The notes below the pieces were generated by a model. It saw only the letters and a list, made by a program, of their open reading frames with translations. It was not told where the DNA came from and did not search any database. A DNA stretch of 42,273 bases, taken from the IMG/VR virus record IMGVR_UViG_2908959467_000004. The stretch is one strand, 5' to 3'. The DNA comes from a virus. Taxonomy: Duplodnaviria; Heunggongvirae; Uroviricota; Caudoviricetes. This document shows, in pieces, positions 1 to 40,207 of the stretch (positions are counted from its first letter, which is position 1; the number at the start of each line of letters is the position of its first letter). The translations under genes were made by a program, and so were the position numbers.

Positions 1-267
1 ATGCGCAGAAAAGAGTCAAACGTTAGCAGTTTGCCGGAACTCACCAATTTTGAGGTAAGCTATTCTCTGGTTACCAATGAAGTTTACTTGTCTGCATCCT
101 TCACTGATAACATGGTCTGTATACCAAACTGGCCCTTACAAGAATTTCCGGATCAACTAATATGCATTTCTCGAGCAAAAGCTGTTGCCCTAATCGAAGA
201 GCTCCAGAAGACCATCAACTATATGGATGCAGGAATAGATCGAAGTTCAGGTAGCCTTCTCCAGTAG
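1..267 (+). CDS. hypothetical protein (low-GC cargo gene beyond the tail module)
   Basis: 88-aa ORF starting at window position 1; AT-rich; no recognisable motif. Confidence 0.3.
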   Translation: MRRKESNVSSLPELTNFEVSYSLVTNEVYLSASFTDNMVCIPNWPLQEFPDQLICISRAKAVALIEELQKTINYMDAGIDRSSGSLLQ

Positions 268-327
268 CTGACGAGTTTTATAATAATTTGATATATATAT
301 ATCGTTCAATATTAGCGAGTACTTATA

Positions 328-975
328 ATGAGTGAATTTAGTAATTTTTTAAATAGCATTCCTGGATGGTTATCCTCCTCCCTCACAGCTCTAGTTGGTA
401 CTCTTATTGGCGGATGGTTTACCCTAAAAGGAGTTACCCAACAAGCTAAGCTGTCTAAAGTAGAGACAGAAAGAGAATCCCTTGAATTGCAACTTTCAGT
501 ATTAAAAGGTGTTAAGGGAGAAATTTTCACCCTAATCAATTTATATAATAAAAGGATGAAAACACACATTGATAGTATCAAACCCGGACAGATGTTAATT
601 CTCACTTTCCCTGTAGGGGATGATAATTTCACATTCTATGAGCAAAATGCGAATGTCATTGCAAAACTAAATGATTCTGCCAGAGACTCAATAATTAATA
701 TCTACACATATTCACGGTCATTAATACAATCATTTAAAGGAAACAACAAACTCATTGAGGATTATGAAAAAATCCTTATTGGTATGGCTGACAATAACAA
801 AGATAAAACCATGTATAAGAGATTACATGATGAAAAAATAGATGTAATGGTAGATTATGCTCAAGGGATAAAAAATATTGATGAAGAACTAAGAGATGCA
901 GTCAATAAGGGATTCAACATTATCGACCAAGAAGTAAAGTCGCTACAAATGAAATTAAACAAATTAGCTTCATAG
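328..975 (+). CDS. hypothetical membrane-anchored protein (one N-terminal hydrophobic helix, then a Lys/Asp/Glu-rich soluble domain)
   Basis: 215-aa ORF; N-terminal segment WLSSSLTALVGTLIGGWF looks transmembrane; AT-rich codon usage unlike the flanking tail genes. Confidence 0.45.
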   Translation: MSEFSNFLNSIPGWLSSSLTALVGTLIGGWFTLKGVTQQAKLSKVETERESLELQLSVLKGVKGEIFTLINLYNKRMKTHIDSIKPGQMLILTFPVGDDNFTFYEQNANVIAKLNDSARDSIINIYTYSRSLIQSFKGNNKLIEDYEKILIGMADNNKDKTMYKRLHDEKIDVMVDYAQGIKNIDEELRDAVNKGFNIIDQEVKSLQMKLNKLAS

Positions 976-1059
976 AAATGCTCCACTCCCTGTTCAAGAT
1001 TTTTACAAGCTTATCAGCCAGCCGTGGCACGTTCTTGCATACGACGTGCCACGGTTTCA

Positions 1060-1188
1060 TTCATCTCCGACCGGAAACTTCTTATACAAAGTCGATACGC
1101 CAACATCATAGATGATCGCCATTTTCTGGCGAGAAACTCCTGATGCAATTTGTCGTCCAGCCTGCGCCCATTGCTCCGGCGTGAGAGT
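1060..1188 (-). pseudogene. remnant of a Gin/Pin/Hin-family DNA invertase (C-terminal HTH only)
   Basis: Minus-strand translation LTPEQWAQAGRQIASGVSRQKMAIIYDVGVSTLYKKFPVGDE-stop resembles the C-terminal DNA-binding domain of Gin/Hin invertases as I recall them; no start codon and no catalytic N-terminal domain. Confidence 0.6.
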
Positions 1189-1269
1189 AAGACAGTAAAC
1201 TGTAGAAAAATCTCATTAAACTTAATATAATAATAAGTTACAGAATTATCTTTACTGAATAATAGACAT

Positions 1270-1815
1270 ATGAATATTAGTGAACTTAAAAACTGTATAC
1301 ACTATGAAGTAATAGGTTATAAACGCCCTTTCTCCTGGCGAAAAGCAATTGTTCGCGCAATAAAACACAGAAGATTACGTTATTTATTTTGGTGGCGCGT
1401 AGCAAAATATCTTTTTGATAAAGGAGGATACCGGCGAAAGATTGCAGGAAAAATAGAACGCTTCATTCTTGATAAATACAATGTAACCGTTCCCTTAACT
1501 GTAAATATTGGTAAAGGGTTCGACATATCTTATCTTAATGGCGTTGTTATCGGTCACAAAGTTACAATAGGTGAAAATTGTTCAATTAAGCCTGGGGTAA
1601 CTATTGGACTTCGCGGTGAATTTAATGATATGGATATTGTCATAGGAAATAATGTAACCATTGGCTGTAACGCCACCATCCTTGGTGGCAAAGTGCATAT
1701 AGGGAATAATGTAAAAATAGGAGCTCATGCATTGGTACTGCATGACATTCCTGATGACTCCACATTCATTACTAAATTTCACTCTGAAATTATTTATAAC
1801 TCATCTCACACATAA
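1270..1815 (+). CDS. hexapeptide-repeat (left-handed beta-helix) O-acetyltransferase, CysE/WcaB-like
   Basis: 181 aa; imperfect hexapeptide repeats IGKGFDISYLNGVVIGHKVTIGENCSIKPGVTIG...IGNNVTIGCNATILGGKVHIGNNVKIGAHALV; low GC; convergent with the tail fiber assembly gene. Confidence 0.7.
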   Translation: MNISELKNCIHYEVIGYKRPFSWRKAIVRAIKHRRLRYLFWWRVAKYLFDKGGYRRKIAGKIERFILDKYNVTVPLTVNIGKGFDISYLNGVVIGHKVTIGENCSIKPGVTIGLRGEFNDMDIVIGNNVTIGCNATILGGKVHIGNNVKIGAHALVLHDIPDDSTFITKFHSEIIYNSSHT

Positions 1816-1825
1816 TTCCGTTTAA

Positions 1826-2404
1826 TCACAGCTCTGGCCATACGATATCCGGGGCTGTATTTATATCAATCCGACTCACTAATACCCGGTATTTTTTCCA
1901 GGAAGATAGCATCGAGATTTCCTCATCAGTTGCCATTTCAAAATTAACAGCATCCTGCAGAATTGTTATGTTATCAGTCGCTTCCTGGATTAATCTTGCC
2001 TTTTTCTCTTCCGCCTCCCGGATCCGGAACAGTTTTTCTGCTTCTGCATCTTTCACCCAAGCTGTGCCGTTCCACTTCTGAAACTCCCCATCCGGCGACA
2101 ACCAGGTGACATTTTCCGGTAATGGGCCAAGTTCAGAAATAAATAACGCGTCCCCTGATGCCACGTCATAAACTGTTTTACCCCGATGGTCTTCAACAAG
2201 ATGCCACGATGCCTCATCACTGTTGAAAACAGCCACGAAGCCAGCCGGAATATCTGGCGGTGCAATATCGGTACTGTTTGCTGGCAGACCTGTATGAGGC
2301 GGAATGTATGCGTCACCTTCACCAACAAATTCATTAGTTCCGGCCAGCAGATTATAAATTGTTATGGTCCGTGGTTGTTCACTCATTCTGAAATCCATGT
2401 TCAC
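1826..2404 (-). CDS. tail fiber assembly protein (Tfa/Mu U-like chaperone)
   Basis: 192 aa; sits at the end of the tail fiber region where a Tfa is expected; composition typical of Tfa proteins. Confidence 0.7.
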
Positions 2405-2406
2405 CT

Positions 2407-3309
2407 CTACTTAATATCAGAGACAGAATATTGTTTATTGAGCGTATGGGTGTGAGCACCAATAACGATGCTACTTCCGTGGCTATGTGCGCCAGAGATG
2501 ACATTACCTACGGGATTTTCTGGATTAATCCGGTGTATATGCGAACCAGGGCGAAACCGGTTATTAGCCTGATGTTGTATCAGTACATCATCAGCCTGAT
2601 GTTCAGGGTTAATACAGACCTGCCCGGAACGTGAGCAATACGTCCGATAATCGCCGCATCCAATATATTTAGTATCCGCATAACGGCAAACAGAATTACC
2701 CGGACAGTATGCATATGTGCCAAATACTGCCGACTGGCGGGATTGTGCGTATTCCCAGTTAATTGATTCTGTTTTTTTATTAAAGTTATCCCATGCCTGC
2801 TTCATCTGCCGGGCAACACTTTCAAACGGCACCTGACCACATCCGGCTCCCATTGCAGGGAATACCACCGTTTTTATTTTCCTGTCTGTCGTTGCGTGTT
2901 TATTGTGCTGAAAGATGGCAAGCAGAGCGGCCCAGGTTGCATTATATACAGCGTCTGTTCCGGCAATTGTCAGCGGAACACGCATTGTTGGCGCATGTAC
3001 CAGCCAGGGGTGATGATTATGCCCCGTTTCAATTACAAATGCAGAACCTACAGGCTGTTCGCCTAGATATTCACGAAGAATATGATTCTGAACGCGGGAC
3101 TGTAACTGAGTACCGAAGAATGCGGTAATGGCGGCATCAACGCCGCCATCCATCAGGCCGAAACTATTTGCCGCACTTACCATGCAGTCAAATTCTCTGA
3201 TTGTTTCAAATGGCTTTCCGACAATATTCACATTATCTGCGGTTGCAAATACCCGCTTAAATGCTTCAGCCATTTCTGTTACTGGTGCAGAAAGAATGAG
3301 CGTAATCAT
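2407..3309 (-). CDS. macro-domain protein with tail-fiber-like His-x-His C-terminal region
   Basis: 300 aa; N-terminal ~190 aa carry macro-domain signatures ([18 protein letters not shown]; [17 protein letters not shown]; [21 protein letters not shown]); C-terminus is Cys-rich and ends [19 protein letters not shown]; start overlaps the tail fiber stop (ATGA). Confidence 0.7.
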
Positions 3310-28598: not shown

Positions 28599-28811
28599 TT
28601 AAGCCTTTTTATCGTTTTGTGAGCCATACAACAGCCAATTAGGGTCGCAATCCAATGCTATAGACATTTCAAGAAGATAACGTGGCCGAGCAATAACACC
28701 ACTTTCAATTCTGTTTATTGCCTGCTGGCTCACTCCTGTGAGCTCAGCCAACGTAACTTGCGTCATTTTGAGTTCTTTACGTCGTTCTTTTACTCGGGTC
28801 GCTAAGGTCAT
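28599..28811 (-). CDS. Cro-like HTH repressor (XRE family)
   Basis: 70 aa from ATG at 28811 (SD GAGGTG); HTH MTQVTLAELTGVSQQAINRIESG; divergent from the CI-like gene and first in the lytic operon. Confidence 0.7.
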   Translation of the reverse strand: MTLATRVKERRKELKMTQVTLAELTGVSQQAINRIESGVIARPRYLLEMSIALDCDPNWLLYGSQNDKKA

Positions 28812-28838
28812 TGCTTTCACCTCATACAATTTTAGTGG

Positions 28839-28868
28839 TATTTAGCAACAACAAACGAGGTTTGTCAA
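28839..28868 (-). promoter_or_regulatory. pR-like promoter with overlapping operator
   Basis: Minus strand -35 TTGACA (28868-28863), 18-bp spacer, -10 TAAATA (28844-28839); inverted repeat GTATTTAGCAA/TTGTCAAATAC (28838-28872) overlaps both hexamers. Confidence 0.5.
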
Positions 28869-28880
28869 ATACAACAAAAA

Positions 28881-28909
28881 TTGTTTTTAATGTGGGGATA
28901 CACATTAAT
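28881..28909 (+). promoter_or_regulatory. pRM-like promoter with operator palindrome
   Basis: -35 TTGTTT (28881-28886), 17-bp spacer, -10 ATTAAT (28904-28909); perfect palindrome TTAATGTG-N6-CACATTAA at 28887-28908; ATACAA-N6-TTGTTT at 28869-28886. Confidence 0.4.
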
Positions 28910-28931
28910 ACAACCCAGAAGGACTAATCCC

Positions 28932-29555
28932 ATGTCTCTCGCAGCCCGTTTTAAAGCACGTCGTTTGGAATTAGGAATGACTCAAGTGGAAGTAGCGAAT
29001 TCTGCAGGGGTTAGCCAACAATCCATAGAATCCATCGAAAGTGGACGAACCAGAAAGCCACGCAATCTTCTGGATCTGGCTAAGGCCTTGAAATGTAGCC
29101 CAGACTGGCTACTGAACGGTAAAAATATTATGCCTCTCGCGGAGATAAGTACCAGACGCATACCTATATTAAGTTACGTTCAGGCAGGAGAGCTTACAGA
29201 AGCAAGAGACATAACAGATCTGACAGGGGAATTTGAATATATTTTGGCAGACTCTGACATTCCAGAAACATGCTTCGCATTACGTATCGATGGCGACAGC
29301 ATGCAACCAGAGTTTAAAGAAGGAGACATTGTTATCATCGATCCTGATCTATGTCCTGCACCAGGGGAGTTTGTTGTCGCCAAAAACGACGGTCACGAAG
29401 CTACATTTAAAAAATACCGTCCATTAGGAATCGGCATCGACGACTTTGAATTAATCCCCCTAAATCCTGATTACCCTATTTTTCGTAGTGCAGATATGAA
29501 CTTACAGATCATAGGTGTAATGATCGAACACCGTATTTACCGCCGTAAACGTTAG
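28932..29555 (+). CDS. CI-like repressor (HTH plus LexA/S24 peptidase domain)
   Basis: 207 aa from ATG at 28932 (SD AAGGA); HTH MTQVEVANSAGVSQQSIESIESG; S24 motifs GDSMQP and FKKY (Ser/Lys dyad). Confidence 0.8.
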   Translation: MSLAARFKARRLELGMTQVEVANSAGVSQQSIESIESGRTRKPRNLLDLAKALKCSPDWLLNGKNIMPLAEISTRRIPILSYVQAGELTEARDITDLTGEFEYILADSDIPETCFALRIDGDSMQPEFKEGDIVIIDPDLCPAPGEFVVAKNDGHEATFKKYRPLGIGIDDFELIPLNPDYPIFRSADMNLQIIGVMIEHRIYRRKR

Positions 29556-29574: not shown

Positions 29575-29594
29575 GGGAGGCGTAACAGCCTCCC
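29575..29594 (+). terminator. GC-rich hairpin downstream of the CI-like gene (weak terminator candidate)
   Basis: GGGAGGC-GTAACA-GCCTCCC; the following tract is not strongly U-rich. Confidence 0.3.
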
Positions 29595-29682
29595 TTACCC
29601 CATTTGTAAAGTCTTACAAATTAAATTCACTTAAATATCAATAAAGTAGTATTCACACCCCCACAAAATACCACATCTGTGG

Positions 29683-29711
29683 TTTACACAATACAACTCA
29701 AATTGTATCTT
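29683..29711 (+). promoter_or_regulatory. pL-like early promoter with operator
   Basis: -35 TTTACA, 17-bp spacer, -10 TATCTT; palindrome ATACAA-N6-TTGTAT (29691-29708) overlaps it and matches the motif in the Cro/CI intergenic region; further palindrome TTTGTAA-N4-TTACAAA at 29603-29620. Confidence 0.45.
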
Positions 29712-29878
29712 TAGCCACAAGTCGAACGGCGCGACTCTAAACCATGCGTCGGGACCGTGGCGGGACAGGATGTCGGCAATACGGGTCAGTAAGTTCCCTT
29801 TGGGGTGCGGCGAAGCACTGTCTACTGATACAAGTCGAAGCCGCCGAACCACCAAAGTGAACTGAATGAGGAAACGGC

Positions 29879-30073
29879 GTGAAAACGTATAAACCGCTCA
29901 AAGGTGAATGCCCTGCTTGCCAAACACAGCTTCTGACACCAAAGCCAAAACGATACCAAATCAACGAATGTTATGAGCACTGCCCTGGATGTGGTGCTTT
30001 CCTGCATACCATTGCAACGCACTGGCGTGTCCGCTTCAACCTTGTGGTACCACGTACGCACAATACCAACTGA
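29879..30073 (+). CDS. small zinc-ribbon protein (possible regulator)
   Basis: 64 aa; GTG start with SD GAGGAA; two CxxC pairs (CPAC ... CPGC); followed by an intrinsic terminator. Confidence 0.5.
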   Translation: MKTYKPLKGECPACQTQLLTPKPKRYQINECYEHCPGCGAFLHTIATHWRVRFNLVVPRTHNTN

Positions 30074-30104
30074 ATCATCCATGTAATTGCTGTGTGTAGT
30101 CTTT

Positions 30105-30130
30105 GCCCGCCTCAAGTGACGGGCTTTTTT
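30105..30130 (+). terminator. Rho-independent terminator (tL1-like position)
   Basis: GCCCG-loop-CGGGC followed by TTTTTT. Confidence 0.55.
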
Positions 30131-30189
30131 ATGTCTGAAAGCGCACTCGCAACAGCGTGCTCCCCGATATGAAAAAAGGAATACAACCG

Positions 30190-30339
30190 ATGAAACCTGA
30201 ACACATCCATCGACTGACGGGGCGCGATGTTCTCCGTTATCGCCGTAAAAACTTCGATTTGATGACCGGTCTGGCCGTTGCCACTGCGCTCGGTCTGATC
30301 ATCACTTTCATTCTCCTTGTAGCGAGGACCACAGTATGA
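30190..30339 (+). CDS. small membrane protein
   Basis: 49 aa from ATG at 30190 (SD AAGGA); C-terminal hydrophobic helix LAVATALGLIITFILLV; stop overlaps the next start. Confidence 0.4.
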   Translation: MKPEHIHRLTGRDVLRYRRKNFDLMTGLAVATALGLIITFILLVARTTV

Positions 30340-33133: not shown

Positions 33134-33802
33134 GTGCTGGGGGATCTCATGAGGGAAAGAATAATGTCACAGCCCGTATTAACTAATTACCTTAAAACTC
33201 AAATCATCAATAACGCACTTGAGAAAGCGGGTATCCCCAAACGTAAATCAGCACTACGAGCTGCTCGTGTTGAATGGGCCGAACGTGTTCGGCTTGCAGC
33301 TATCGGGGGCGTAGAGAAAGAAGCTGAAATATTAAAAAATATAAAAAAAATAGAAACACTGGTATCAAAATTCCCCGAAGCATTAAAAACCGCCAATAAC
33401 ATTATCAGGGAAGAGTGTTACATGTGTCTGAATCTGGCAGGTTCTCGGGTTACCGTCTATTTCAACGGTAACTACCGAGGATATGAATCAGGGTCACCAG
33501 ACCATATTCACAAAATCGCGCCGGGGGAATTTACCCTTCTGGCAAATGACCCTCTAGTTACAGAGTTTTACGGGTTTGATACACTTTATGAGCAGATACA
33601 GAGCGATGAGTCAGACATTCGACAGAATGTCAGCGCTGCACTCAGTAAAGTGCGCACAGTTAAGCGCCTGCTGGAAGAGTGGCCTGAAGCTAAAGAACTT
33701 CTGCCAGCCGATGCACCATCTGCTCCGCTTCCGCCAGCTATACGACGCGAAACTCTCAACGAAATGATCGGCCTCCCTTCTGACGAAGGGGTAGATGCTT
33801 AA
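33134..33802 (+). CDS. hypothetical protein
   Basis: 222-aa ORF; internal ATG at 33164 is an alternative start. Confidence 0.4.
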   Translation: MLGDLMRERIMSQPVLTNYLKTQIINNALEKAGIPKRKSALRAARVEWAERVRLAAIGGVEKEAEILKNIKKIETLVSKFPEALKTANNIIREECYMCLNLAGSRVTVYFNGNYRGYESGSPDHIHKIAPGEFTLLANDPLVTEFYGFDTLYEQIQSDESDIRQNVSAALSKVRTVKRLLEEWPEAKELLPADAPSAPLPPAIRRETLNEMIGLPSDEGVDA

Positions 33803-33869
33803 TATTTCTTATAACAAAGGCTGGCTTAAGAAAATAGTTATCCAAACCAGCCTACCGCAATACTAAAAA

Positions 33870-34139
33870 TTAAAATTCATTGAATTTAAAAAGACATTTC
33901 CCTATTGGATTGCCATAGTCTCTACATACCGAAATGCTGTCCCATACAGGCTGAGCCAAACACCCAAGAAAGAACCCAATAAGCGCAAAAATTATAATTT
34001 TGGGAAGAACACGATCCTTAGGACCTTCTTCACGTTCGAGCCATGCGCCACCAGCCCGAACTATTCTCCCTAAAATATAAAGAATGGGGAAAGCAATAAT
34101 ACCTATCAATGAAAGTATTCCGATACCAAAGCTAAACAC
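33870..34139 (-). CDS. small integral membrane protein, oppositely oriented moron
   Basis: 89 aa; hydrophobic helices ILSLIGIIAFPILYIL and IIIFALIGFFLGCLA; AT-rich; antisense to the replication operon. Confidence 0.5.
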   Translation of the reverse strand: MFSFGIGILSLIGIIAFPILYILGRIVRAGGAWLEREEGPKDRVLPKIIIFALIGFFLGCLAQPVWDSISVCRDYGNPIGKCLFKFNEF

Positions 34140-34195
34140 CGCCGTCTCCTTGTTTATTTACACCTACATAACCATATATCACACAAGGTTATTTT

Positions 34196-36259
34196 ATGTC
34201 CAATATACTATGGGGTGACCTAGAAACCTATTGCGAAATCCCTATTACGAACGGTACCCATGCGTATGCCGAAGGCGTTGAAGTGATGCTGTTCGCATGG
34301 GCTATCAACGACGAGCCCGTAAACGTGTGGGATATCACTGCCGGTGGTGGTATTCCACACGGCTTATACGAAGCAATCGCAGCCCCTGAAACCCTGCTTT
34401 ATTTTCATAACTCTCACTTCGACCGCACCGTCCTGCGTTATGCAATGCCGCGCCTGGCACCGCCAGTCGAACGTTGGCGCGACACAATGGTGCAGGCGCT
34501 GGCGCACGGTCTCCCGGGGTCTCTGGGGGAACTCTGCGAAGTACTAGGCGTCCCGCAAGACAAAGCGAAGGACAAAGAAGGTAAAGCGCTGATCCAGCTG
34601 TTCTGTAAGCCACGCCCGAAAAACAGCAAACTGCGCCGGGCCACCAGCAAAACCCACCCGGAAGAATGGCGGCGCTTTGTTGCTTACGCCGGACTGGATA
34701 TCGAGGCAATGCGCGAAGTCTATAAACGTCTGCCGAAGTGGAATTATCAGGGGACAGAACTGGCGCTCTGGCATCGTGATCAGCAGATCAACGACCGGGG
34801 CGTCTGCATGGACATTCAACTCGCGCGCGCTGCGATCGAAGCGGTAGACCAGGAGCAAAAGCGCCTGGCAAAGCGTACACAGGAAATGACTGATGGCGAA
34901 GTGCAGGCAGCAACACAACGGGACGCGTTGATTAAGCACATCGTTGAATCCTACGGTGTGGAGCTACCAGACATGCAACGCAGTACTCTGGAACGTCGTA
35001 TAGCCGACCCCGATTTACCATCTGCCGTGAAAGAACTGCTGGCTATCCGCCTGCAGGCCAGTACTACCAGCACCAGTAAATACAAGGCACTGATGAAAGG
35101 CGTAAGCCACGACGGGCGCTTACGCGGTACGCTACAGTTCTGCGGGGCGTCACGTACCGGTCGTTGGGCCGGACGGCTATTCCAGCCCCAGAACCTTCCC
35201 CGCCCTTCACTAAAACAGGAACAAATAGACGAAGGCATCGAAGCACTGAAAGCCGGATGTGCAGACCTGCTGTTTGACAATATCATGGAACTAACCAGTT
35301 CAGCGTTACGTGGCTGCATTATCGCGCCAACAGGCAAAAAACTGGTGGTAAGTGACTTGTCGAACATTGAAGGCCGTATGCTGGCATGGCTGGCGGGAGA
35401 AGAATGGAAACTGAATGCATTCAGAGAGTACGACGCCGGAACGGGTCCGGACTTATATAAACTGGCGTATGCAAAAGCTTTCGATATTGCACCAGATGAT
35501 GTTGATAAACACATGCGTCAGATCGGTAAAGTCATGGAACTCGGTCTGGGTTATGGCGGTGGTGTATCGGCTTTCATCACTTTTGCTCTGGTTTACGGTC
35601 TCGATCTCGACGAGCTGGCGAACGCCGCACTGCCAAACATTCCCCGCGATGTTATCCGCGAGGCGAAAAGCTGGTACAACGAATCGGTTAAACGTAAGTC
35701 GACCTTTGGCCTGTCCGAGCGTGTATTCATCGCATGTGACTCGCTCAAGCGCCTGTGGCGCAGGGCGCACCCGGCGACCTGCGATTTCTGGTACGAACTG
35801 GAGCGCACCGTCCGCACTGCAATCGCCACACCGCAAAAAACATTGTATTGCGGTTATCTTAAAATCCGCCGCGATGGCGCGTGGCTGCGCATACAGCTAC
35901 CATCCGGACGCGCTGTATGCTACCCCTCTCCGGTTATCGAAAAAGGGAATATCACCTATATGGGTGTTAACTCTTATTCGCGTAAATGGCAACGACTCAA
36001 AACCTACGGCGGAAAGCTGGTAGAGAACGTCACCCAGGCGGCCGCCCGCGACGTTCTGGCCGGAAACATGCCGCTTATCGAAGATGCCGGTTACAGCATT
36101 GTGCTGACGGTACACGACGAGGTGATCACCGAAGCACCTGACACAGAAGATTTCAACGATAAAGAGCTTTCCGCGCTTCTCTCCAATAACCCCGAATGGG
36201 CGCCCGATATCCCACTGAACGCTGGCGGTTTTGAGGCGTACCACTACCGTAAGGATTAA
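34196..36259 (+). CDS. DNA polymerase, family A (PolA-like)
   Basis: 687 aa; motif B-like [16 protein letters not shown] and motif C-like VHDEV; N-terminal exonuclease-like region. Confidence 0.85.
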
Positions 36260-36264
36260 TCGCT

Positions 36265-36468
36265 ATGACTGTAATCAAAACGCATACCGGAACGGTTATT
36301 ACCCGCACCGGTGAAAAGCAGGTGCAATTGCATCAAAACGCGACAACGTGGGTGGCTGGCCCAAAAGAGTATTACTACAAAGACACTGGCCGCCGCGGTG
36401 GTGCTGTCGGTGTCCGCACTCGTCTGGTGCTGAGCAGCATCCGCCCAATCGAAGCAAAGCAGGAGTAA
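36265..36468 (+). CDS. hypothetical small protein
   Basis: 67-aa ORF directly after the polymerase gene. Confidence 0.35.
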   Translation: MTVIKTHTGTVITRTGEKQVQLHQNATTWVAGPKEYYYKDTGRRGGAVGVRTRLVLSSIRPIEAKQE

Positions 36469-36473
36469 CCCCT

Positions 36474-36695
36474 ATGTCATTTAAATATCGGGACAGTCCG
36501 CTTTATTACCGGGCTGCGAGGGAGGCCTTGCGCCTTGAGCAGTCCGGCGAATATGACCGGGCAGCGAAGGTCTGGGCCAAGGCTAACCGCCAGTCACGTA
36601 ACGAACTGAATCAGGACTGGAGCGAACGCCGGTCTGATTTTTGTCTGATGCAGAACATGCGCGAAAAGCGTAAGGCGGTGAGCGATGACTTGTGA
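36474..36695 (+). CDS. small regulator-like protein (possibly ANR-family-like)
   Basis: 73 aa from ATG at 36474 (SD AGGAG); basic helical protein with C-terminal FC motif. Confidence 0.35.
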   Translation: MSFKYRDSPLYYRAAREALRLEQSGEYDRAAKVWAKANRQSRNELNQDWSERRSDFCLMQNMREKRKAVSDDL

Positions 36696-37167
36696 GCAGA
36701 CCATTCTTGACATGTGCTGCGGCTCTCGTATGTTTTGGTTCGACAAGGAGGACAAGCGCGCCGTGTTCAGTGATATCCGCGCCGAGCAGCATGAGCTTTG
36801 CGACGGTCGCCAGTTGGTTATAAGTCCGGACCTTATAGCTGATTTCCGCGCCCTTCCCTTTGCCGATAACACTTTCCCTGTCGTCGTTTTCGATCCGCCG
36901 CACCTCGAGCGCGTCGGCGATAACGCGTGGATGAGGAAAAAGTACGGGCGGCTCAACAAAGAAACATGGCGCGATGATCTTCGCGACGGCTTCGCCGAAG
37001 CATTCAGGGTATTGCGGACCCACGGTGTACTCATATTCAAATGGAACGAAACGCAGATCCCGGTAAGCAATATCTTGGCGCTGACCGACGAGAAGCCGGC
37101 CATATGGCAACGAACCGTAAAAGCCGACAAAACCCACTGGGTTATTTTCGTCAAAGGTGTGGAATGA
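36685..37167 (+). CDS. small SAM-dependent methyltransferase-like protein
   Basis: 160 aa; N-terminal ILDMCCGS (motif I-like) and VVFDPPH (DPPY-like motif IV). Confidence 0.5.
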   Translation: MTCEQTILDMCCGSRMFWFDKEDKRAVFSDIRAEQHELCDGRQLVISPDLIADFRALPFADNTFPVVVFDPPHLERVGDNAWMRKKYGRLNKETWRDDLRDGFAEAFRVLRTHGVLIFKWNETQIPVSNILALTDEKPAIWQRTVKADKTHWVIFVKGVE

Positions 37168-37460
37168 TGGCCTACGAACGTGAAAGCCTTATCGAAAAGC
37201 ACCTCGTCGCCGAAGTGAAAAAGGCTGGCGGGGTCGCCTTTAAGTTCGTGTCACCCGGTCGCCGCTCGGTACCGGATCGCATTGTCCTGCTACCCGGCGG
37301 TCGCATCGTCTTTGTCGAATGCAAAGCGCCAGGCAAACCACCACGGCCTGACCAGTTACGCGAGCACGAACGGCTGCGCGCGTTGGGCTTTACCGTGGTG
37401 GTATTAGATAGCAAAAATCTGGAGGGGATATTGTGCGGGGAGCCTATTACAACGAAATAG
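37164..37460 (+). CDS. VRR-NUC domain nuclease
   Basis: 98 aa from ATGATG at 37164 overlapping the upstream stop; PD-(D/E)XK-like core DRIVLL...VFVECK. Confidence 0.7.
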   Translation: MMAYERESLIEKHLVAEVKKAGGVAFKFVSPGRRSVPDRIVLLPGGRIVFVECKAPGKPPRPDQLREHERLRALGFTVVVLDSKNLEGILCGEPITTK

Positions 37461-38461
37461 ACCCTAACGCAGCACAATGGCTGCGTAACCTTATTGCTGC
37501 AGGTCATATCGCCCCGGGTGAAGTTGATGAAAGGAGTATCGAAGATGTCGCACCAGACGACTTGCGCGGATTCACACAGTGCCATTTCTTCGCCGGGATC
37601 GGCGTCTGGTCTTATGCTCTGCGTCTGGCCGGATGGCCGGATAACAAACCGGTCTGGACAGGAAGTTGCCCGTGCCAGCCTTTCAGCTCGGCTGGTAAAG
37701 GCGCTGGGTTTGATGACGAGCGGCACCTATGGCCAGCACTATTCCACCTCATCAGCGAGCGACGCCCTAAGCTGGTATTTGGCGAACAGGTTGCGGGAGT
37801 CAATGCCTGGTTCGATCTTGTACAAACTGACGTGGAAGCAGTGGACTACGCCTTTGGGCTTGTCCCGTTTCCGGCTGCGGGCGTCGGTGCCCCGCATATC
37901 CGAGATAGAGCGTATTGGGTGGCCGACGCCAGCGGCGAGCGATCACAGCGGTGGCGAAAGCGCCTCAATAGCATTGAGGAAGATGTCTGGAGATCGTCGA
38001 CCGTCCGGCAACACGCTACACAGCTCCCTGCGGAATTTTGCTCACCTAGCGGGGTGGTACACCCCAACCTGCAACACAAACCCACAGCCGGAGACAAAAC
38101 GCGGTCTAGAAACCTTAGCGGGACTATCCAGATTAGCGGGATGGCCGACAGTGACGACGATCGACAACAACCAAGTTCGTGCCGAGGGCGCAGCGGCCAA
38201 TCATACCGAACGGGGAACGACCCTCGGCGGCGCTGCGAGAATCTGCGGCCCAATACGATTAACGGCTGCTGGGATGGTGCTGACTGGCTCCTCTGCCGGG
38301 ATGGTCGCTGGCGGCCAGTTGAATCCGGCACATGCCCGTTGGCTAATGGGATTACCTCCAGAGTGGGACGACTGCGCGCCTACGGCAACGCGATAGTCGC
38401 ACCAGCTGCCGCAACATTCATCCGCTCGTTTATGGAATGCGCAGGATACGACCTTATTTAA
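37433..38461 (+). CDS. DNA (cytosine-5) methyltransferase, Dcm-like
   Basis: 342 aa; motif I FFAGIGV, motif [15 protein letters not shown], motif VIII-like [10 protein letters not shown], motif X-like YGNAIVAP; a second long ORF (37494..38396, +1 frame) with MTase-like motifs overlaps it. Confidence 0.7.
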
Positions 38462-38778
38462 TGCCACTCACATCTGGCATGATACCGTCCAGAAGGTAAT
38501 TGCTTATATACAACGGAGCCGCCCATGGCATAAGTATAAGCATGAAGTTTTGTCCAGAAGTCCCCATAAACTAGTATTGGGGCTAAAAATTTTGGATCGC
38601 TAACCATAGATGTAGCAGGAAGCTCGAAACCTTTAGAAAGAATGTTTACCAGTGAAGGGTAATTTTCAAAATCAGTGCTATTCCCGCCCACCTCTAAAGC
38701 ATCCAGTTCAAAGTCGAGCACTCCACCATTTTTGTAATACTCCGGAACAGTTAACCCTGATGTTAACAAAGTAGCCAT
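38458..38778 (-). CDS. hypothetical protein, oppositely oriented moron
   Basis: 106 aa; strong SD AGGAGG 8 nt upstream; lower GC; divergent from the helicase gene. Confidence 0.5.
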   Translation of the reverse strand: MATLLTSGLTVPEYYKNGGVLDFELDALEVGGNSTDFENYPSLVNILSKGFELPATSMVSDPKFLAPILVYGDFWTKLHAYTYAMGGSVVYKQLPSGRYHARCEWH

Positions 38779-38812
38779 TAAACAATCCTCCTGAATTTTA
38801 AAGGGTTACATT

Positions 38813-40207
38813 ATGCCCAAAGTTTTCACGCCTCGCCCCTACCAAGATCTAATTATCAACCACGAAATCGACATTCACCGCTGCAACATCTGGGCAGGGA
38901 TGGGGATGGGTAAAACCGTAGCGACACTCACCACGCTGGAAGATCTTTTCATGGCGGGCTCAGAGACACAGCCCGCGCTGGTCCTCGCGCCCCTACGCGT
39001 TGCAGCAAGCACATGGCCGGATGAAGCGCTGAAATGGGGGCATCTGCGCAATATCGAGGTGCAGCCGATTGTTGGTAACGCCAAAGCGCGCTCTGCAGCG
39101 CTGGCGAACAGCAACGCGAGCGTGTTCACCATCAACTACGATAACCTTGTCTGGCTGGTTGAGGAATTGGGAGAACGATGGCCGTTCGGTACTGTCATTC
39201 CAGATGAAAGCACCCGGCTAAAATCCTTCCGGCTGCGAGGTGGTGGTAAGCGCGCGGCGGCGCTGGGCAAAGTGGCGCATAAGTATGTCCAGCGCTGGAT
39301 AAATCTCACCGGTACGCCAGCACCGAACGGCCTGGTAGATTTGTGGGGACAATTGTGGTTTGTGGACCAGGGGCAACGTCTCGGGCGCACTTACGGCGCG
39401 TTTACCTCACGCTGGTTCAACTCGATACAGTTTCCGGGGCAGAGCTGGACCAAACTGGAGCCGTTTGCTCACTCACAGGCTGAAATACAGCGAGCGTTAG
39501 CCGATGTGACCCTCTCGCTGGATGCGGCCGACTGGTTCGATATCAAAGACCCCATCCATAACGTAATCCGCGTGGATATGCCGCCGAAGGCCCGTCAGCA
39601 GTATCGTGAAATGGAAAAGGAAATGTTCCTCGAGCTGAATGGCGAAGGCATCGAAGCACCGAACGCCGCGGCAAAGACACTGAAATGTCTGCAAATCGCC
39701 AGTGGCGCAGTATACACAGACGACACCGGAAGTTGGTCAGAACTGCATGACACCAAACTACAAGCGCTGGACAGCATACTGACCGAAGCAGCTGGCGCAC
39801 CTGTGCTGGTTGCTTATCACTGGAAACACGATCTTGAACGCTTGCTTAAAGCATTCCCTCGCGGTCGTCACCTCGACCAGGATCCACAGACACTGCGCGA
39901 CTGGAATTCCGGAAAGATTCCTGTTCTCTTTGCACACCCAGCCAGCGCGGGCCACGGCCTGAACATGCAGGACGGCGGAAACATACTGGTGTTTTTCTCG
40001 CACTGGTGGGATCTGGAGCAGTACCAACAAATTATCGAACGCATCGGGCCAACCCGGCAGATTCAGGCCGGACACAACCGCCCGGTGTTCATTCACCACA
40101 TTATCGCCGCCGACACTATGGACGAAATGGTGATGGAGCGGCGCAACTCAAAACGAACAGTGCAGGACATCCTGCTCGATGCCATGAAAAAGAGAGGTAT
40201 AGCATGA
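38813..40207 (+). CDS. SNF2/DEAD-like helicase
   Basis: 464 aa; PYQ motif, Walker A GMGKT, DExx box IPDEST; C-terminal helicase domain. Confidence 0.8.
   Translation: MPKVFTPRPYQDLIINHEIDIHRCNIWAGMGMGKTVATLTTLEDLFMAGSETQPALVLAPLRVAASTWPDEALKWGHLRNIEVQPIVGNAKARSAALANSNASVFTINYDNLVWLVEELGERWPFGTVIPDESTRLKSFRLRGGGKRAAALGKVAHKYVQRWINLTGTPAPNGLVDLWGQLWFVDQGQRLGRTYGAFTSRWFNSIQFPGQSWTKLEPFAHSQAEIQRALADVTLSLDAADWFDIKDPIHNVIRVDMPPKARQQYREMEKEMFLELNGEGIEAPNAAAKTLKCLQIASGAVYTDDTGSWSELHDTKLQALDSILTEAAGAPVLVAYHWKHDLERLLKAFPRGRHLDQDPQTLRDWNSGKIPVLFAHPASAGHGLNMQDGGNILVFFSHWWDLEQYQQIIERIGPTRQIQAGHNRPVFIHHIIAADTMDEMVMERRNSKRTVQDILLDAMKKRGIA

Follow-up and report, generated by a model that had tools for sequence, protein, structure and literature searches.

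A homologue of the HK022 putL antiterminator RNA at the head of the left operon of an Escherichia coli prophage, with an exchangeable first-gene slot and a partial RprA homologue downstream

The early-left operon of the prophage studied here opens with a long GC-rich leader, a small zinc-ribbon gene and an intrinsic terminator, which raises the question of how RNA polymerase reaches the genes beyond. A first-pass annotation of the region 29712-30130 had likened it to an N/nut/tL1-type antitermination checkpoint and had left the role of antiterminator to the small CxxC...CxxC protein, to another regulator or to a structured RNA. The window, i.e. the whole stretch of 42,273 nucleotides that was analysed, is by its sequence an Escherichia coli prophage (features lie on the plus strand unless otherwise indicated). 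The leader was 100% identical in, for example, E. coli strain 97-3250, and a match to it was present in 106 of 5,426 complete genomes, with about 1% of complete E. coli genomes carrying it.

The immunity region was arranged like that of lambda read in reverse, with a Cro-like HTH gene on the minus strand (28599-28829), followed after a gap of 3 nt by the gene for a VapE primase and, further along the right arm, by that for a Q-family antiterminator, and with a cI-like HTH/S24 repressor gene on the plus strand (28881-29555). Just past the repressor gene, a hairpin with a weak U-tract (GGGAGGC-GUAACA-GCCUCCC; 29575-29594; -16.1 kcal/mol, z = -4.7) probably marks the end of the repressor transcript. 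The sigma-70 promoter upstream of the leader (TTTACA-17-TATCTT; 29683-29711), recognized by promoter scan and by alignment to the annotated HK022 PL, possessed a -35 hexamer identical to that of HK022 PL and, in the alignment, an equal distance to the RNA that follows it. Two 18-bp operator palindromes (ATACMA-N6-TKGTWT; 29668-29685 and 29691-29708) overlapped its -35 hexamer and spacer, and the same motif occurred twice more in the cro/cI intergenic region (28824-28841 and 28869-28886); the promoter is therefore repressor-controlled and, as the first-pass annotation had proposed, PL-like. Of the nine matches to the motif in the window, counted on both strands, eight coincided with these four sites, where chance would give 1.25. 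The four operator-like palindromes sit at the two divergent early promoters. The leader had also been rightly described as GC-rich, with a G+C content of 54-60% in 29712-29878 compared to 31-43% immediately upstream.

Within the leader, the 72 nt from 29718 to 29789 form a clear homologue, by alignment, covariance model and pairing counts, of the put-type (polymerase-utilization) antiterminator RNA putL of phage HK022. In a sensitive blastn search against phage records, 29707-29791 matched HK022 at 79-83%, and the matches included loci annotated as 'putL antiterminator RNA' in HK75 and O276, as well as phiEt88 and several P22-like phages. From the -35 hexamer as far as stem II, the alignment with HK022 had no gap, so that promoter and RNA start are spaced as they are for HK022 putL.

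The cryo-EM structure of HK022 putL (PDB 7XUE; Hwang et al. 2022, PMC9378689) and its numbering served as reference, HK022 position n corresponding to window position 29717+n up to n = 47, and C72 to 29787. In this numbering, put comprises helix 1 (3-7/15-19), helix 2 (10-14/30-34) and stem II (36-72). All pairs of the cryo-EM structure, and with them the two-armed fold, were kept in the window RNA. HK022 putL is inactivated by mutation of A9, U28, G35, G45, A64 or the G43-G47 block, the latter being the put-minus mutant (PMC9378689), and all of these nucleotides were identical in the window (29726, 29745, 29752, 29760-29764 and 29779 for A9, U28, G35, G43-G47 and A64, respectively). Three pairs differed from HK022 putL in a compensatory manner (A5-U17 to U-A, G38-C70 to C-G, and C41-G66 to U-A). 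The apical helix of stem II was one base pair shorter, with one deletion per strand, and retained its AGGAU loop. This short-stem form recurred in other contigs, where the variable apical pair was A-U, G-C or U-G, and it is therefore regarded as a selected variant and not as a decayed copy.

The put RNAs are an already known family, to which the window RNA adds a member, and King et al. 2011 (J Bacteriol 193:5784) is said to list the known put-like RNAs. Further put sequences were gathered by a pattern scan of viral contigs. Among 15 distinct putL-like sequences, 96.4% of the cells were paired on the cryo-EM pairing (pseudoknot included), compared to at most 46.5% in slid controls, and 7 of the 23 pairs had changed on both sides. 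A covariance model built from this alignment (R1) gave the window put a score of 90.9 bits (E about 1e-19), the next-best match in the window scoring 11 bits, and it detected the divergent HK022-type putR, used as a positive control, at 42-48 bits. The Rfam search suggested in the first-pass annotation found no family at gathering thresholds anywhere in the window, and left the leader without a match even at E up to 10. When putR and sequences from species-representative genomes (Morganella, Providencia, Gilliamella, Pantoea, Kluyvera and Siccibacter) were added, 97% of the cells were paired and 10 of 18 pairs were compensatory among 26 distinct sequences, in an alignment fitted to the model, which favours structure. 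RNAalifold independently recovered helix 2 and the lower part of stem II. With its filters off, the covariance model found no second put site in the whole 42-kb window, and the right operon leaves no room for a putR because cro and the primase gene are so closely spaced.

The comparisons above establish which RNA this is and where it lies; its activity is judged from that of HK022. By this analogy, the leader probably acts as a put-type antiterminator RNA that carries polymerase through the terminator into the left operon without a phage protein. The HK022 put works without any phage protein, and its putL RNA binds the zinc-binding domain of the RNA polymerase beta' subunit (PMC9378689). With the two operators vacated by the cI-like repressor, RNA polymerase would initiate at about 29718, and the first 72 nt of the transcript would fold into the two-armed put structure, which would bind the beta' zinc-binding domain and the flap tip of the polymerase that is transcribing it. 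The put-bound polymerase would then resist pausing and termination, pass the intrinsic terminator at 30105-30130 as well as any later ones, and reach the replication, recombination and DNA-modification genes of the left operon, no phage protein being needed for this read-through. The short-stem put is assumed to be active on the E. coli polymerase, an assumption because its apical stem II is 1 bp shorter than that of HK022.

The operon thus placed under put extends over ~10 kb on the plus strand, 3' of the leader. Its first conserved gene past the terminator (30190-30339) encodes a 49-aa protein of phrog_11981 with a hydrophobic C-terminal segment, and is followed by genes for a 302-aa protein, a DUF2800 PD-(D/E)XK nuclease, an Enc34-type ssDNA-binding protein and, at 33134-40207 (plus strand), Nmad5 (nucleotide-modification-associated domain), a family A DNA polymerase, a C5 cytosine methylase and an SNF2 helicase. 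The combination of these last four suggests a DNA-modification module in the put-controlled operon.

Past put and before the first-gene ribosome-binding site, the leader also encoded a long imperfect helix, about 19-22 bp in length and apically variable (29792-29863; MFE -29.9 kcal/mol, z = -4.75), which in an Enterobacter relative (L009) reached z = -5.8. Folding of the whole leader, as advised in the first-pass annotation, gave a z of only -1.1, and the signal emerged when put and the long helix were folded separately. Across 11 variants of the helix, 95.9% of the cells were paired, with one compensatory pair (C-G/U-A/U-G), so that its support is thermodynamic and positional and does not come from covariation. 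Its apical part tolerated indels from about 12 to more than 100 nt among relatives. The helix is most likely a processing or insulating element. In the lambda N leader, studied in the Court laboratory, an RNase III site reportedly follows the antitermination signal and precedes the ribosome-binding site of the first gene, and our preferred reading, drawn from this analogy, is that the long helix may be an RNase III site at which the mRNA is cut loose from the put RNA bound to polymerase.

The long helix resembles the acceptor end of a tRNA in the sequence of its arms (GGUGCGG...CCGCACC-NCCA), and in one relative (L134 1520-1680, minus strand) the loop carried an insertion of ~100 nt with a perfect T-arm (CGCGGGUUCGAAUCCCGC). 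A tRNA or tmRNA reading was nevertheless rejected, as ARAGORN made no call and Rfam matched just the 18-nt T-arm. The 10-bp direct repeat ACAAGTCGAA pointed out in the first-pass annotation was exact at both of its positions (29717-29726 and 29830-29839), but such a repeat is expected in about 2% of random 167-mers and was found in 18 of 508 tiles of the window. Its first copy is the 5' strand of put helix 1, and its second copy, in the apical loop of the long helix, was missing or mutated in relatives. The repeat was accordingly discarded as a feature, being neither beyond chance nor conserved in its second copy.

The intrinsic terminator, already noticed in the first-pass annotation, consists of a hairpin at 30105-30124 and a tract of six U at 30125-30130 (GCCCG(CC)-UCAAGU-(GA)CGGGC + U6), and is modest in strength (-9.8 kcal/mol). 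It was absent from the list of a simple terminator scan with a stated loop limit of 3-8 nt, probably because an internal mismatch leaves a 10-nt loop. It was conserved in relatives, with compensatory changes in the stem.

In a permissive Rfam search, 30025-30134 matched the small RNA RprA (RF00034) at 49.7 bits (E = 3e-5; range 46-53 bits), below the gathering score of 70. Aligned to the K-12 rprA gene, the RprA-like module (30066-30130) comprised a degenerate seed-like stretch CCAACUGAAU overlapping the stop codon of the small ORF (30066-30075), a core AAUUGCUGUGUGUAGUCUUUG (30085-30105), and the terminator. The stretch AAUUGCUGUGUGUAGUCUUUGCCC was identical to the chromosomal K-12 rprA, and the terminator had the same architecture with a different loop. 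Only the last ~47 nt of RprA could be aligned confidently. The module lacked the RprA 5' stem-loop, and with it the three-stem-loop arrangement of RF00034. On these alignments it is a partial RprA homologue and, by the Rfam criterion, not a member of the RprA family.

The RprA-like core was nearly invariant in 17 distinct phage-borne variants, whichever ORF precedes it, and better conserved than the flanking coding DNA. Many of the phage variants had AUCCCCUGA(A/G)U, matching the seed region of RprA, where the window copy is degenerate. Core and terminator were identical at 44 of 48 positions to those of an E. bugandensis prophage, all four differences lying between the terminator stems, and a phage-type copy was present in about 178 of 5,426 E. 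coli genomes. A more distant relative had a terminator at the same position without similarity to RprA. The promoter scan found no sigma-70-like site for the module on the plus strand of 29712-30130, and no site complementary to the core was found within the window. The AACGAAUU block of RprA pairs with rpoS, and this block is missing from the module of the window. No report of a phage RprA-like RNA was found in the literature searched.

Termination or processing could release a small RNA from the module. An alternative to an antitermination checkpoint, compatible with the put model, is that 30066-30130 chiefly makes a small RNA mimicking the processed 3' form of RprA, released from the early transcript by termination or RNase E cleavage. 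In its favour, a processed 3' form of RprA of ~47 nt coexists with full-length RprA and is active (PMC9262595; PMC6202311), and the module spans this form; the identity of the core to chromosomal rprA, the seed-region match in many relatives and the conservation of the core beyond that of the flanking coding DNA point the same way. The score below the gathering threshold, the missing 5' stem-loop, promoter and rpoS-pairing block, the degenerate seed-like part in the window and the terminator of the distant relative argue against it, and we regard this alternative as possible but doubtful. A somewhat more tentative proposal, which we would put at rather unlikely, gives the first early-operon terminator a second role as a phage-encoded mimic of host RprA, an Hfq-binding small RNA released on induction. 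If it were true, the RprA-like RNA could act on RprA targets or titrate its partners, e.g. in envelope-stress, biofilm or RpoS circuits, and its amount would depend on how much of the polymerase is put-modified and how much is not; if expressed, the terminator would be a case in which a phage has copied a core small RNA of its host.

The likeness to put might also reflect nothing but a shared ancestry of promoter and operators, the leader being an ordinary 5' UTR without effect on elongation, given that mosaic phage genomes have many short segments in common. This is highly improbable: the operators and the rest of the promoter differed from HK022 whereas the RNA was conserved, the changes in put were compensatory in both alignments, and put was fully conserved where its flanks were not (72/72 positions identical between the window and an Enterobacter bugandensis prophage, compared to only 71-89% identity in the neighbouring segments). 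Antitermination by the put RNA remains the preferred reading.

In relatives with other immunity regions, the place of put was taken by another conserved and structured leader, about 165 nt in length and with a near-consensus boxA at its start (GCTCTTTAACAA; L006 2736-2950, L196 1594-1790, L141 2340-2520 and L167 1561-1740). This leader, which had no match in Rfam, was followed by the same long helix or by the same downstream modules, and it may be a different processive-antitermination RNA. Such an exchange of put supports this position as the antitermination slot of the operon. Near the leader of the window, no boxA was found within 2 mismatches. In the leaders of L006 (about 2935-2946) and L134 (about 1911-1922, minus strand), but not in the window, a strong Shine-Dalgarno sequence accompanied a mini-ORF of three codons (ATG CAC AAG TAA).

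The small ORF encodes a 64-aa zinc-ribbon protein (29879-30073) with the motif C11xxC14...C35xxC38 and, as described in the first-pass annotation, a GTG start, located 5 nt past the Shine-Dalgarno sequence GAGGAA (29868-29873). Its frame was open in three variants (100%, 88% and 75% identical) with dN/dS values of 0.16-0.44, a substitution pattern that marks it as a real gene under purifying selection. RefSeq (PGAP) leaves the gene unannotated, both in the window (29879-30073) and in L005 (4180-4374). An exhaustive HMMER search of 1.84 billion representative proteins yielded two further relatives (60% and 49% identity), bringing their number to about five over these and 5.8 billion clusters, and the four cysteines were invariant among them. 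The AlphaFold2 model was an all-beta zinc ribbon (pLDDT 83.8). No significant match to the protein was found in Pfam, PHROGs, PDB sequences or Foldseek. The profile search against Ogr/Delta-like regulators suggested in the first-pass annotation was unsuccessful, Ogr_Delta not being among the Pfam hits at E up to 1, which were generic zinc-ribbon families, all below cut-off; lambda N did not match either, in line with the earlier impression that the protein is unlike N.

The gene lies in a slot bounded by the conserved AACTGAATGAGGAA on the left, which includes the Shine-Dalgarno sequence, and by the conserved CTGAAT...ATTGCTGTGTGTAG on the right. Both slot flanks (window 29859-29873 and 30066-30079) contain AACTGAAT. 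In relatives with the same put, the slot was occupied by unrelated small ORFs, most of which use the same Shine-Dalgarno sequence, including a ~31-33-aa acidic peptide starting (V/M)DDYEAYFDSL, an ORF starting MPKYKLVNDL, and others. Conversely, the zinc-ribbon ORF (88% identical) was found behind a put-less boxA-type leader in L006 (E. coli AP024130). The zinc-ribbon gene is thus a passenger in an exchangeable first-gene slot, and a part for it in antitermination is very unlikely, because ORFs are swapped in the slot and this one also occurs behind a put-less leader. The suggestion that the protein itself brings about antitermination, or is indispensable for it, by acting on leader RNA or polymerase as an analogue of N or Ogr/Delta, can draw on its place as first gene past the early promoter (as N in lambda), on its purifying selection and on a fold common among nucleic-acid and polymerase binders, but it has scarcely any probability left given that HK022 put needs no phage protein (PMC9378689), that prophages with an identical or near-identical put carry unrelated ORFs in the slot, that the ORF also follows the boxA-type leader of L006, and that the protein had no N, Ogr/Delta or Pfam family match at cut-off and no significant structural neighbour.

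With antitermination assigned to the put RNA, the leader would explain how the left operon is switched on without an N protein in this group of E. coli and Enterobacter prophages, which bears out the structured-RNA option of the first-pass annotation. It extends put RNAs to a phage type with its own DNA polymerase and a single put site, and offers a natural short-stem variant for structure-function work on the control of RNA polymerase by RNA. The swap between put and boxA-type leaders at the same position is a natural experiment in the exchange of antitermination modules. Beside the put homologue, the RprA-like module is a novel side observation.

Among known systems, RprA of E. coli and Salmonella (RF00034) shares about 24 consecutive identical nt and the terminator architecture with the module of the window, and relatives of the window share the seed-like stretch AUCCCCUGAGU with it. 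The phage module differs from RprA in lacking the 5' stem-loop, in its shortened linker, in apparently lacking an Rcs/Cpx-type promoter, in its place within the 3' end of a phage ORF and in its score below the Rfam threshold. The RNase III site of the lambda N leader is likewise a long imperfect helix between antitermination signal and first-gene ribosome-binding site; it has no sequence similarity to the helix of the window, and the likeness is one of analogy.

The closest counterpart of the leader itself is HK022 putL, which also lies directly past a repressor-controlled early-left promoter, measures about 72-74 nt and has a terminator downstream. Helix 1, helix 2, stem II and the functionally critical nucleotides are common to both, at about 80% identity, with three base pairs flipped and the apical stem II 1 bp shorter in the window. 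HK022 possesses a putR in its right operon, whereas putL has no such partner in the window, and its first gene is nun, whereas that of the window is the zinc-ribbon ORF. Unlike HK022, the phage of the window is not a classical lambdoid phage, and encodes its own family A DNA polymerase, a VapE primase and an Enc34-type SSB. Compared with lambda PL-nutL-N-tL1, the window has neither boxA/boxB nor an arginine-rich N, and its signal would act as RNA alone; the N/nut-like mechanism of the first-pass annotation is not supported and gives way to an HK022-type put, and its position of the checkpoint was right, as the window keeps the lambda order of repressor gene, early-left promoter, leader signal, small first gene, terminator, and recombination and replication genes.
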